Positions 27,001 through 32,036 of a stretch of 64,000 nt of DNA are shown here, piece by piece. Origin of the DNA: Escherichia coli (GTDB taxonomy: Bacteria > Pseudomonadota > Gammaproteobacteria > Enterobacterales > Enterobacteriaceae); the NCBI RefSeq assembly GCF_022846255.1, contig NZ_AP025682.1. One strand, given 5' to 3'. Position 1 is the first letter of the stretch. Every line of letters starts with the position of its first letter. The position numbers were made by a program.

Positions 27001-30000
27001 GCCTGCTTATCGGGCCGAACTGATAGCCGAAAGCCTGTGGGAGTTTATTGACGAGGACCGCAGCGTGCAGACGCGTCTGGGGCGTGAAGACAGCGAGTAT
27101 CTCGCCCGCTCGGTGCCGTTCTACGCCGCTAATCAACCGCTGGCTGATATCAGCGAAATGCGCGTGGTACAGGGAATGGACGCCGGGCTTTATCAAAAAC
27201 TGAAACCGTTGGTCTGTGCGCTGCCGATGGCCCGCCAGCAAATCAACATCAATACATTAGATGTCACGCAAAGTGTGATTCTTGAGGCGCTGTTTGACCC
27301 GTGGTTAAGCCCTGTTCAGGCGCGGGCGTTATTACAACAACGTCCGGCGAAGGGCTGGGAAGATGTCGATCAGTTTCTTGCACAGCCGCTACTCGCAGAC
27401 GTCGATGAGCGTACTAAAAAACAGCTAAAAACCGTCCTGAGCGTGGACAGCAATTACTTCTGGCTGCGTTCAGATATCACCGTGAATGAGATTGAACTGA
27501 CGATGAACTCGTTAATTGTCCGCATGGGCCCACAACACTTTTCTGTTCTCTGGCATCAGACAGGAGAAAGTGAGTGAGTTCCATCCTTGAGATTTTTTTC
27601 CCGCTTTGCGCCTCCGACACCATCCGCTGGCAGCGCCGTACCGCCGACGTGGAGTGCGGCATCTGGCCTGACGTTGCTGACGAACGTCTCCAGCAATGGC
27701 TGCAAACTGATGCGATTCGACTCTACATTCCCGGCGAATGGATCAGCGTCTGGCAGGTTGAACTGCCTGATGTGCCCCGCAAGCAGATACCGACGATTCT
27801 GCCCGCCTTGCTGGAAGAAGAGCTGAACCAGGATATCGATGAACTGCATTTTGCCCCGTTGAAAATCGACCAGCAACTGGCAACCGTAGCTGTGATTCAC
27901 CAGCAGCATATGCGCAACATTGCGCAGTGGTTGCAGGCAAACGGCATCACCCGCGCTATCGTCGCGCCGGACTGGATGTCCATTCCTTGTGGGTTTATGG
28001 CTGGCGATGCGCAACGGGTTATCTGCCGCATCGATGAATGCCGGGGATGGAGCGCCGGGCGAACGCTGGCTCCGGTCATGTTCCGCGCACAGCTCAATGA
28101 GCAGGATTTACCGCTTTCACTAACCGTGGTCGGCATTGCACCGGAAGAACTGTCTGCATGGGCTGGTGCAGACGCCGAACGCCTGACCGTTACGGCTCTG
28201 CCCGCCATTACCACTTATGGCGAACCGGAAGGGAACCTGTTAACAGGGCCGTGGCAGCCTCGTGTCAGCTACCGAAAACAGTGGGCGCGCTGGCGGGTGA
28301 TGATTCTGCCGATATTGCTGATTCTGGTTGCGCTGGTAGTGGAACGGGGCGTGACGTTATGGAGCGTCAGCGAACAGGTGGCGCAAAGCCGCACCCAGGC
28401 GGAGAAACAGTTCTTAACGCTATTCCCGGAGCAGAAGCGGATTGTGAATTTACGCTCTCAGGTGACGATGGCGCTGAAAAAATATCGCCCACAGGCCGAC
28501 GATACCCGGCTGCTCGCCGAGTTGTCAGCGATAGCCAGCACCCTGAAATCAGCGTCACTTTCCGACATCGAAATGCGTGGTTTCACCTTTGATCAAAAAC
28601 GCCAGACGCTCCACCTTCAGTTGCGGGCAGCAAACTTTGCCAGTTTCGACAAACTGCGTAGCGCACTGGCGGCAGATTATGTTGTGCAACAGGACGCATT
28701 ACAGAAAGAGGGTGATGCGGTTTCCGGCGGCGTAACGTTGCGGAGGAAATAACATGTTACGCGATAAATTTATTCACTATTTTCAGCAATGGCGTGAACG
28801 CCAGTTAAGCCGTGGCGAACACTGGCTAGCACAGCACCTGGCGGGGCGTTCGCCGCGTGAAAAAGGCATGTTACTGGCAGCGGTGGTGTTCCTGTTTAGC
28901 GTCGGATATTACGTCCTCATCTGGCAGCCGTTGAGCGAACGGATAGAACAACAGGAGACGATGTTGCAACAGCTGGTGGCGATGAACGCGCGACTGAAGA
29001 GCGCCGCGCCGGATATAATTGCAGCGCGAAAATCCGCCACGACAACGCCAGCACAGGTATCGCGGGTCATCAGTGACAGCGCTTCCGCGCACTCAGTGGT
29101 CATCAAGCGGATAGCCGAGCGCGGGGAGAATATTCAGGTCTGGATAGATCCGGTGGTGTTTAATGACCTGCTGAACTGGTTAAACGCGCTGGATGAAAAG
29201 TATGCGCTGCGGGTGACACAAATTGATGTCAGCGCAGGTGAGAAGCCTGGGATGGTGAATGTGCAGCGGCTGGAGTTTGGACGGGGGTAGGTATTGCCAT
29301 TTCCTTAACCCCACCTGATAACCCTTAGCCCAAGGGTGAGTGCGGAACTGTCAAACCCGCTCACCGGGCTGAGTTCCGATGTAGCAAGATTTATCTCCCT
29401 CCAGAGCACCACGGAATGTTCGACAATACTGTAGGAATTCGTTTTTCACCATGTAGCCTTCGTTAATCTACACCTTTCTAAGACTGTAAAGATGCTTAAG
29501 TGTTTTGACACATTATGATTATTAATAGTTGTAATAAATCATTGAGTAACAATTGATAGGTCAAAACATATAGGATAATTCTTATGTGATCTGTATTTTG
29601 TGTAGCCTGGAAATTAGTAAAATTACTGGAGATAATCAGAAAGGGAATTTCAAATAAGCATAATAATTTCCAGGGAAACTATTCGTCGATTTTAAGAAAT
29701 GTCTGCTCAGGTATATCTACTGAGGGATGGTGTTGGTTGTAACGCTGGTTAAAATAAACACACAAAATAATCAGGATGTATATTTTAATCGACGAAAATA
29801 ATTACCTTCGGGATTATTGATGCGACTTAAATAACACCATTTAAACGTGATATAAATCACAAATATGGCTGTGAAGAGGGTGCTGTAGATATAAATAAGA
29901 AGTACATGAGTGAATTTTAAATAGGAAAATAGTTTCTCGCTAAACAATTTATTGGTAATCAATCGCATGCGTTCTGGTTTGAGACAGATTGCAGGTGTTG

Positions 30001-32036
30001 CTACGCATAAAATTCATAGGCGGTATTATAATCAAGTAGTTAACAGTAATAGTAAAAAATAATTTCTTGCGAAATTAGCGGCCCATTTTGAATAAGTGTG
30101 TTCCGGAGTAATCCAGAACGCATGCTGCTTTACGTCTTTTTCAAGCCATATTGGTTAAGCAAAAAGAGGTAGAAATAATTTCCTGAGAAATTAACTCTAC
30201 ATTCTGAAACGGCCAGTTTTCTGAAATTACCAGAAGACCGAATACATTCATGCCTGAAGAATGGATTAGAAGAAACGAGACGGAAATAGATCTATTTATC
30301 CCTGCGGAAATAATTTCTGATGAAATTGTTTTCGGCTATTAAAAAGGTCAAACCGGCTGAGTGAATTTTATCCAGTTACAAATAAGCATTACCTCCAGTG
30401 TATTGGTAGCTGTTAAGCCAAGGGCGGTAGCGTACCTGAAGAGATTAGGATCACATCATCAAATGGCAAGAAGTGGATTTGAAGTCCAGAAAGTCACCGT
30501 AGAGGCATTATTTCTACGAGAAATACGAACACGCTTTGGTAAGTTCCGTCTGGGATATTTGTGGGCGATTCTCGAACCCTCTGCGCATTTGCTGATACTG
30601 TTGGGCATTTTTGGTTACATTATGCACCGCACGATGCCAGACATCTCATTCCCGGTGTTTTTACTTAATGGCCTGATTCCCTTTTTTATCTTTAGCAGTA
30701 TCAGCAATCGTTCTGTAGGTGCTATTGAAGCGAATCAGGGGCTGTTTAATTATCGACCAGTAAAACCCATCGATACGATCATTGCGCGTGCATTGCTTGA
30801 GACACTGATTTACGTTGCTGTTTATATATTGCTTATGCTTATCGTCTGGATGGCAGGCGAATATTTCGAAATAACAAACTTTTTACAACTTGTGCTTACC
30901 TGGAGTTTGTTAATCATTCTTTCATGTGGCGTTGGCTTAATATTCATGGTCGTTGGTAAAACCTTCCCTGAAATGCAAAAGGTCCTGCCGATACTGCTTA
31001 AGCCGCTGTATTTCATCTCCTGCATCATGTTCCCTCTACACTCGATTCCGAAGCAATACTGGTCATATCTACTCTGGAACCCATTAGTGCATGTCGTAGA
31101 GTTAAGCCGCGAGGCAGTTATGCCTGGCTATATCAGCGAAGGCGTGAGTCTGAACTACCTTGCAATGTTCACTCTGGTCACCCTGTTCATCGGTCTGGCG
31201 TTATACCGAACGCGTGAAGAGGCAATGCTGACATCATGATTAAGATTGAGAATTTGACGAAGTCATATCGCACGCCAACGGGTCGACATTATGTCTTTAA
31301 GGATTTAAACATCGAAATCCCTTCAGGAAAAAGTGTCGCCTTTATTGGTCGTAATGGTGCGGGTAAATCAACGTTACTGAGAATGATTGGTGGCATTGAC
31401 CGCCCCGATAGCGGAAAGATCATCACCAATAAAACGATATCATGGCCAGTCGGCCTTGCAGGTGGATTTCAGGGAAGTTTAACCGGACGCGAAAATGTAA
31501 AATTTGTCGCGAGGTTATACGCGAAGCAAGAAGAACTGAAAGAGAAAATTGAGTTTGTTGAAGAATTTGCCGAACTCGGTAAGTACTTCGATATGCCGAT
31601 TAAGACTTACTCATCTGGTATGCGATCGCGTTTAGGCTTTGGTTTAAGCATGGCATTTAAGTTTGATTATTATATCGTCGATGAAGTAACCGCAGTCGGT
31701 GATGCCAGGTTTAAAGAAAAATGCGCTCAATTGTTTAAAGAAAGGCATAAAGAATCTAGCTTTTTAATGGTTTCACATAGTTTGAATTCATTGAAAGAGT
31801 TTTGTGATGTGGCCATTGTGTTTAAAGATGATAATGCAGTTAGTTTTCATGAGGATGTTCAGGAGGGGATAGAGGAGTATCGTGTAAAACAAACCTGCAA
31901 ATAACAATCATTTATGTAAGTTTGAAATAACTTCACATCATCTATTTCTAATAAGCATCCAGTATTAAATGTGTAAATTTTATTTATAGGGTGCAAGGAT
32001 AATGACGATTATTTTTAAAAAATATTCCGGAGCTGA

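Follow-up and report, generated by a model that had tools for sequence, protein, structure and literature searches.

A regularly spaced six-copy dyad array in the kpsM leader of group 2 capsule loci in Escherichia coli

JUMPstart (RF01707), a short cis element with a small hairpin found in RfaH-dependent polysaccharide operons, is one of the described systems closest to the element that we report here, an array of six related dyads in the leader of kpsM in an Escherichia coli group 2 capsule locus. The locus lies in a stretch of 64,000 nucleotides of contig NZ_AP025682.1 (RefSeq assembly GCF_022846255.1), which we call the window and whose positions we use throughout. The array shares with JUMPstart the leader, the strand, the operon type and the form of a short hairpin. 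However, JUMPstart is present in a single copy, is GC-richer, is found across genera and has a known partner, RfaH, whereas the array is specific to Escherichia, lies 90 to 760 nt upstream of ops, and has no RF01707 score: none of its six copies matched the family in a cmscan search of 29200-30600 with E up to 10. The same search found no Rfam family in the kpsM leader besides RF01707.

Other known systems resemble the array in part. The REP/BIME, ERIC and Correia elements are also short imperfect palindromes that are transcribed as hairpins, vary in copy number and can bear on mRNA fate. Yet they are spread genome-wide without regular spacing, and are mostly GC-rich (REP) or longer (ERIC, Correia). 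We found no dispersal of the REP/BIME or ERIC type: in 110 fetched loci, including 115 kb of the Nissle 1917 chromosome, exact matches to the motif occurred only in kpsM leaders. The likeness to RNA thermosensors (the Neisseria meningitidis cssA 5' untranslated region (UTR), FourU, ROSE) lies in AU-rich leader hairpins, temperature-dependent stability and thermoregulated capsule loci. Known thermometers, however, occlude the ribosome-binding site of the gene they regulate, whereas between the array hairpins and the kpsM Shine-Dalgarno sequence downstream there are 130 to 800 nt. Measured to the ATG at 30463, the upstream distance of the copies is 129 to 802 nt, and none has an Rfam thermometer match; their predicted stability rises at 20 °C, as for any AU-rich hairpin. 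The thermoregulation of E. coli kps has moreover been reported as transcriptional, unlike thermometer-type control. Stem-loops that impede RNase E, such as the ompA 5' hairpin, are comparable as local hairpins in a long 5' UTR and as possible obstacles to decay, but they are single, usually 5'-terminal and unrelated in sequence, while the array is a sequence-related family at a regular interval. A terminator scan of 29250-30520 returned 0 intrinsic terminator or attenuator sites; the AU-rich stems contain no more than 1-3 G-C pairs, and a U-run follows only copy 6. At the DNA level, copy 2 falls within the H-NS downstream element mapped at +141 to +219 of the K5 region-3 leader (Xue et al. 2009), which is AT-rich and required for thermoregulation. 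That element was defined as a 79-bp protein footprint and not as a repeated dyad, and the five other copies lie outside the reported footprints. The array is thus apparently undescribed: it is absent from Rfam and from the related capsule literature that we covered, which did not include the primary promoter papers, so earlier notice is possible.

The dyad array and its conservation

The motif AAATAATTTC-N4-GAAATT occurs without mismatch at 30057-30076, 30173-30192 and 30308-30327. An earlier note, made from the sequence alone, had placed copies at these three starts, exactly as we find them, with a spacer of four or five nucleotides; the spacer is 4 nt in all three. It had also pointed to a degenerate copy near 29662-29680, which we locate at 29661-29680 with 2 mismatches. 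A repeat finder retrieved two further diverged copies that had been missed, at 29796-29815 (AAATAATTACCTTCGGGATT) and 29927-29946 (AAATAGTTTCTCGCTAAACA). What had been seen as three to four quasi-periodic copies is therefore a regular six-copy array, polymorphic in copy number, with start-to-start spacings of 135, 131, 130, 116 and 135 nt. The family consensus is AAUAAUUUC, a 4-nt loop, then GAAAUUAUU. The array is flanked by the region-3 promoter, whose start is near 29607-29618, on one side and by JUMPstart/ops (30396-30434) on the other, in agreement with the earlier assignment to a kpsM leader with ops at its 3' end.

These copies are far above chance expectation. In the window there are 13 matches with at most 3 mismatches for 0.97 expected (0/100 shuffles), and in the leader alone, which is 65% AT, there are 5 plus-strand matches for 0.063 expected (0/2000 dinucleotide shuffles). 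An excess explained by AT content, which the earlier note had named as a reason to discard the motif, is thus contradicted by the counts. The even spacing is also non-random, despite spacers that are unrelated to each other: the probability that all five gaps are at least 116 nt inside a span of 647 nt is 1.2e-4 by chance.

We then aligned 43 distinct leaders, obtained from genomes and from a metagenome scan and including E. whittamii and other Escherichia lineages. The copies are kept in sequence and in position among these homologous leaders, a point on which the earlier note had made its proposal depend. Nucleotide diversity is 0.047 in the arms (18 positions per copy); the spacers reach 0.097 and the 4-nt loops 0.270, and the departures of arms and loops from the spacer level are both significant by permutation. 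At four-fold degenerate sites of kpsM, in the 27 sequences where this gene is complete, diversity is 0.120. Hence, the spacers are near neutral and change about as fast as synonymous sites, purifying selection constrains the arms about twofold, and the loops are hypervariable. The loops (e.g. 29671-29674 and 29806-29809) have more than twice the four-fold diversity of kpsM and often show multi-base changes. This diversity may reflect a mutational hot spot in hairpin loops.

Of 5426 complete E. coli genomes, 1699 have the leader. Only ~411 of the about 1600-1700 genomes with a leader carry the segment that separates copy 4 from copy 5; this polymorphic unit of 116 bp begins with copy 4, stops where copy 5 starts (30057-30172) and is deleted in ~3/4 of the E. 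coli kps leaders, including K1 and K5 types. The deletion lies exactly between the direct repeats AAATAATTTC of copies 4 and 5 (e.g. in K1 strain IHE3034), and the resulting short form is a five-copy array that remains in register after the loss. The long form is probably ancestral, because it is carried by the most divergent alleles (~78% identical) and by other Escherichia lineages (E. whittamii and E. sp. E1V33). Nissle 1917 has in addition a 10-bp tandem copy of AAATAATTTC, i.e. a duplicated 5' arm. In 35 other enterobacterial genera, whose KpsM is 63-86% identical, only JUMPstart is shared: pattern searches, blastn, a hairpin census and a covariance model revealed neither motif copies nor analogous hairpin arrays. 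Besides JUMPstart, the sole part of the leader with a detectable homolog in another genus is a 59-nt promoter-proximal segment (29519-29576), which has a counterpart of 78% identity in Phytobacter (L036:2693-2750) at ~200 nt from JUMPstart. This short distance suggests that the array region is an Escherichia-specific expansion. The segment is part of a highly conserved AT-rich stretch upstream of the probable start (29519-29584), at whose end an RcsAB-box-like TAAGAATTATCCTA occurs on the minus strand with 2 mismatches (29571-29584).

The position of the transcription start tells which copies are in the transcript. The K5 region-3 start was placed 741 nt upstream of kpsM (PMC8960920). Since K5-type alleles, including Nissle 1917 (K5), are of the short form and lack the 116-bp unit present in the window, this start maps to ~29607, just downstream of a -10-like TATTTT (29594-29599). 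Independently of this, RNA-seq in CFT073 delimited a transcription unit with an 846-nt UTR (PMC9765446, supplement); this strain has the long form, and the start of its unit maps to 29618. Together, the two mappings define an inferred start zone on the plus strand (29594-29618), and therefore all six copies are transcribed, roughly from +45 to +693. We had considered that copy 1 might be upstream of the promoter, with a start at ~29722, but this is ruled out by the 116-bp deletion in K5-type alleles and by the length of the CFT073 UTR.

Possible RNA pairing and the rival explanations

We regard the array tentatively, at close to though not quite an even chance, as a set of cis-acting RNA stem-loops of the kpsM 5' UTR that act on the leader transcript. 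The substitutions in copies 2-6 are suggestive in this respect, rather than decisive. Transitions that turn a Watson-Crick pair into a sense-strand G.U wobble are about as frequent as expected (12 observed, 13.5 expected), while those that break the pair by creating A.C are depleted (4 for 11.3 expected, P = 0.006), as are transversions (6 for 15.2 expected, P = 0.004). A symmetric site in double-stranded DNA predicts equal depletion of both classes of transitions, and thus the pattern favours pairing of the sense-strand RNA over a protein site in double-stranded DNA. The UTR as a whole also has more structure than shuffled versions of it (z = -4.5), and the local hairpins that RNAalifold recovers include those of copies 2, 5 and 6 as well as that of JUMPstart. 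The earlier note had left the choice between a dimeric DNA-site array and repeated RNA hairpins open; transcription of the array, the depletion of pair-breaking changes and these three recovered hairpins make the evidence lean towards RNA, with copy 2 retained by the DNA option for its place in the H-NS footprint.

The six predicted stem-loops, all on the plus strand, differ in strength. Copy 6 (30305-30334) is the most stable, with a 13-bp stem that includes two G.U pairs, the loop UGAU and -13.5 kcal/mol. Copy 5 (30169-30200) has the core UAAUUUC-CUGA-GAAAUUA and an outer stem GUAGA/UCUAC that is specific to the window allele (-9.8 kcal/mol). Copy 4 (30057-30077) is the exact motif, with the stem UAAUUUC/GAAAUUA and the loop UUGC, and is 100% paired in the 22 alleles having it. 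Copy 2 (29796-29818), AAUAAUU-A-CC-UUC-GG-GAUUAUU, has the top of its stem replaced by CC/GG with the hairpin retained, and 99% of its cells are paired across alleles, through U.G/U-A and C-G/U.G variation. Copy 3 (29927-29950; AAAUAGUUU-CUCGCU-AAACAAUUU) carries the one compensatory pair found among paralogs, a G-C in the place of the A-U of the family consensus. Copy 1 (29661-29683; AAUAAUUUC-CAGG-GAAACUAUU) has an A.C mismatch within its own stem. The six copies, which have 24-34% GC, score 30-34.5 bits (31.2 for copy 1 and 34.5 for copy 3) with a covariance model made from 40 copy variants, which retrieves nothing significant elsewhere in the window or in the other loci. In the equilibrium ensemble of the full UTR, the probability of a copy forming its own hairpin is 0.97 for copy 6; for copy 2 it is 0.61 at 37 °C and rises to 0.86 at 20 °C.

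Several observations weigh against a role of these stem-loops in RNA. The direct asymmetry between wobble and pair-breaking changes is modest (12 vs 4, ~P = 0.08 after correction for mutation bias), and the substitutions of copy 1 show the opposite pattern, with no pairing-specific constraint. In the RNAalifold consensus, the partner of its 5' arm is instead GGGAAUU (29643-29649). The six stems are nearly devoid of classical covariation, with 1 double-sided change in 59 pairs, the same as in shuffles, although this test is uninformative because the arms barely vary. Copies 1, 3, 4 and 5 are weak when folded alone, between -0.5 and -2.8 kcal/mol at 37 °C (-0.6 for copy 3), and their own-hairpin probabilities in the full UTR are 0.00 to 0.32, since the arms of other copies and neighbouring sequences compete for pairing. 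One 116-bp unit is dispensable in most strains. Pairing alone does not explain why the arms of copies 4-6 are near-identical, which would call for something more, such as a sequence-specific binder or a recent common origin.

If the array does act as RNA, six short AU-rich stem-loops (five in most E. coli), one approximately every 130 nt along the ~850-nt leader, would work in cis on the nascent or mature transcript. They might slow or pause RNA polymerase; alternatively, they might govern how well Rho, RNase E or RNA chaperones gain access, or offer an RNA-binding protein a series of docking sites. They would thereby determine how large a share of the transcripts gets as far as ops, the point at which RfaH takes over, and could be the sequence basis of the published damping of transcription by this UTR: according to Xue 2009, as summarised in PMC8960920, the large UTR moderates the transcription that reaches kpsM. 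Since most of the stems are only just stable at 37 °C and hold better at 20 °C, one may speculate that the effect would be graded by temperature. A more elaborate version, which we find distinctly doubtful, would make the array a modular RNA device of an as yet undescribed kind: a periodic hairpin array in the RfaH-free part of the leader of a xenogeneic operon, metering polymerase or the access of Rho and RNase in a temperature-dependent manner, alone or with an RNA-binding protein, and tuned between strains by the gain or loss of whole 116-bp units.

The dyads could instead be spaced DNA sites of high affinity, for nucleation of H-NS/StpA or for SlyA, YbdO or LrhA, within a silencing or counter-silencing complex over the leader, which we judge fairly unlikely. 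The H-NS footprint at +141 to +219 of the K5 leader is needed for repression at 20 °C (PMC8960920), and it maps to ~29747-29825 in the window allele, where it contains copy 2; this mapping is inferred from allele comparison, and it spans 79 bp of DNA that is AT-rich in general. In CFT073 the kps unit lies under H-NS/StpA filaments (PMC9765446), and the stretch bound by YbdO, the 300 bp immediately upstream of kpsM, holds copies 5 and 6 (PMC9141747). The arms themselves are AT-rich, contain TpA steps and have the same sequence in several copies, and a variable centre between conserved half-sites is typical of sites bound by dimers. Yet DNA sites leave unexplained why only the pair-breaking class is depleted, instead of A-to-G and T-to-C changes alike. 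The spacings of 116 to 135 bp are out of helical phase, and the motif is missing from the co-regulated region-1 promoter. The earlier note could not attribute the dyad to any named site, and neither can we: no copy fits the consensus of SlyA, H-NS, FNR, Fur or RcsAB. Specifically, no copy core is within 2 mismatches of the H-NS nucleation motif TCGATAAATT (Lang et al. 2007), the SlyA box has 0 matches with up to 3 mismatches, and near-matches to FNR, Fur and RcsAB sites fall outside the dyad cores.

It is also conceivable, though in our view unlikely, that the array has no regulatory role and is the relic of a small palindromic repeat that was serially duplicated or spread within a single AT-rich intergenic region, then maintained and reshaped at the DNA level by slippage and template switching. 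This would fit the clean repeat-to-repeat deletion of 116 bp and the predominance of the short form, the extra 10-bp tandem AAATAATTTC of Nissle 1917, the restriction of the array to Escherichia among related kpsM leaders, the weakness of most stems, the partial likeness of flanks between copies, and loops about twice as variable as synonymous sites, as expected at a hairpin-loop hot spot. A relic is harder to reconcile with arms that change less than half as fast as neutral sequence, both between alleles of only ~78% identity and between Escherichia species. Correction by template switching would clear away G.T and A.C mismatches without distinction, but wobble variants persist at the neutral rate. 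Moreover, the spacing is kept although the spacers have no residual homology at the repeat lags, and the 116-bp deletion leaves the array in register. The conserved element might otherwise be the -10-like hexamer that every copy carries on the non-template strand (AATAAT in copies 1, 2, 4, 5 and 6, AATAGT in copy 3), acting as a sigma70-dependent pause or a cryptic promoter before RfaH is loaded; sigma70 and RfaH are competitors for a shared site on the elongation complex. We hold this to be highly improbable, as it accounts neither for the conservation of the 3' arm nor for the pairing-specific pattern. Such hexamers are common in AT-rich DNA, and a promoter scan gave 3 sites for 4.7 in shuffles.

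Origin of the spacing and other features of the locus

We examined several origins of the array that were then rejected. Tandem duplication of a unit of ~130 bp would produce regular spacing, but Tandem Repeats Finder found nothing, there is no autocorrelation at lags 116-135 once the cores are masked, and the pairwise likeness between copies is confined to 20-45 nt around each dyad. A derivation of the leader from degenerate JUMPstart modules was considered on the basis of the 5' flank of copy 5, which resembles GTTAAGCC..GGTAG, and of the resemblance of CCTGAGAAATTA to the post-ops CCTGAAGAGATTA. The score of the copy-5 flank is only 17.5 bits (E ~5), which is not significant, and the Rfam model sees no extra JUMPstart; this origin is kept as a weak lead only. 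Insertion of a mobile element with a 10-bp target duplication would make the K1 allele an empty site, the window an occupied one and Nissle 1917 a footprint. However, other K5-type alleles show a plain 116-bp deletion, there are no terminal inverted repeats, and the extra 10 bp of Nissle 1917 are a local tandem duplication. We also discarded small upstream open reading frames (ORFs) across the copies, which lack a Shine-Dalgarno sequence and are not conserved.

Beyond the six stems, the RNAalifold consensus of the leader has 11 pairs with compensatory changes, all outside them. It includes a long-range helix on the plus strand between GUCGAUU (29683-29689) and AAUCGAC (29787-29793), which joins the facing flanks of copy 1 (3' side) and copy 2 (5' side) and in which the three most divergent alleles show compensatory GC to AU changes at two pairs. 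The flank AATCGACG shared by copies 1 and 2, which had suggested that copy 1 is inverted relative to copy 2, is better explained by this helix. RNAalifold also draws a 6-bp TGTGAT-N4-ATCACA hairpin. At that place, ~230 nt into the UTR, most alleles have AAATGTGATATAAATCACAAAT, a near-perfect CRP-type palindrome (TGTGA-N6-TCACA; 29843-29864). Its half-sites are almost invariant in the 43 alleles, the exceptions being a single C variant at each of the two end positions, and its central 4 nt are variable; in the window allele the left half reads ACGTGA.

Other sequence features lie between the copies. The stretch between copies 5 and 6 holds a 14-bp palindrome without mismatch, AAATAGATCTATTT (30284-30297), which has GATC (a Dam site) at its centre and is not kept in the most divergent alleles. 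Copy 4 is bracketed by a 16-nt inverted repeat (GCATGCGTTCTGGTTT / AATCCAGAACGCATGC; 29965-29980 and 30110-30125), 94% complementary, whose 3' arm sits within the 116-bp unit missing from short-form alleles. Some alleles (ETEC6333 L008, L088) swap GGGATGGTGTTGG at ~29722-29735 for a poly-G run of variable length (GGGGGG---GGG), a possible slippage tract near the beginning of the UTR. The next match of the covariance model, and the only one outside the leader in the window, is at 18699-18727 (22.5 bits, E ~0.02); it is probably due to chance, as a match of the same score in Nissle 1917 (L052:1629-1657) falls within the coding gene gspS2. One metagenome contig (L099) has a leader that is non-homologous at all six copy positions, with an alignment 46% identical overall.

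The group 2 capsule locus of the window follows gspK, gspL and gspM, which end at 29290, and the intergenic region between gspM and kpsM (ATG at 30463) spans 1172 bp. In strain SMS-3-5 (L006), a TnpB gene of IS200/IS605 type replaces gspM upstream of ~29450. JUMPstart (30396-30434, plus strand) was identified with 58.5 bits, for a gathering score of 35 (E = 1.6e-12). The ops-like element that the earlier note had seen at 30423 is a true ops, GGCGGTAGCGTA (30423-30434, plus strand), inside JUMPstart at the 3' end of the leader, and is the RfaH loading site. kpsM is followed by kpsT and then by region 2, while region 1 is on the minus strand. Region 2 (32037-36056) is very compact: it has one ORF of 1117 aa, with an internal HAD-hydrolase-like domain, and a second of 209 aa, similar to hexapeptide-repeat O-acetyltransferases. 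In the assembly of Nissle 1917 (L053, NZ_CP007799.1 3427483-3429234), kpsS is directly followed by kpsT, which it overlaps, and no region-2 (kfi) genes lie in between. Such an arrangement would not be expected of a K5 strain; a fault of the assembly may explain it.

Meaning for group 2 capsule expression

In extra-intestinal E. coli, capsules of group 2 (K1, K5, K2 and others) count as major virulence factors. The 5' UTR of their region-3 operon is unusually long (741-857 nt) and is known to dampen the transcription that reaches kpsM, by a determinant that has not yet been assigned. The hairpin family provides a concrete and mutable target for this damping effect, on which the RNA hypothesis and the DNA/H-NS hypothesis become separable. 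The loops, hypervariable beside conserved arms, would also be a clean natural example of hairpin-associated mutation bias. The presence of six copies in some strains and five in others (K1- and K5-type) is a natural allelic difference that could contribute to differences between strains in the level of capsule. Were the array to be the modular, temperature-dependent device that we find doubtful, capsule thermoregulation would gain an RNA layer besides H-NS, SlyA and BipA.

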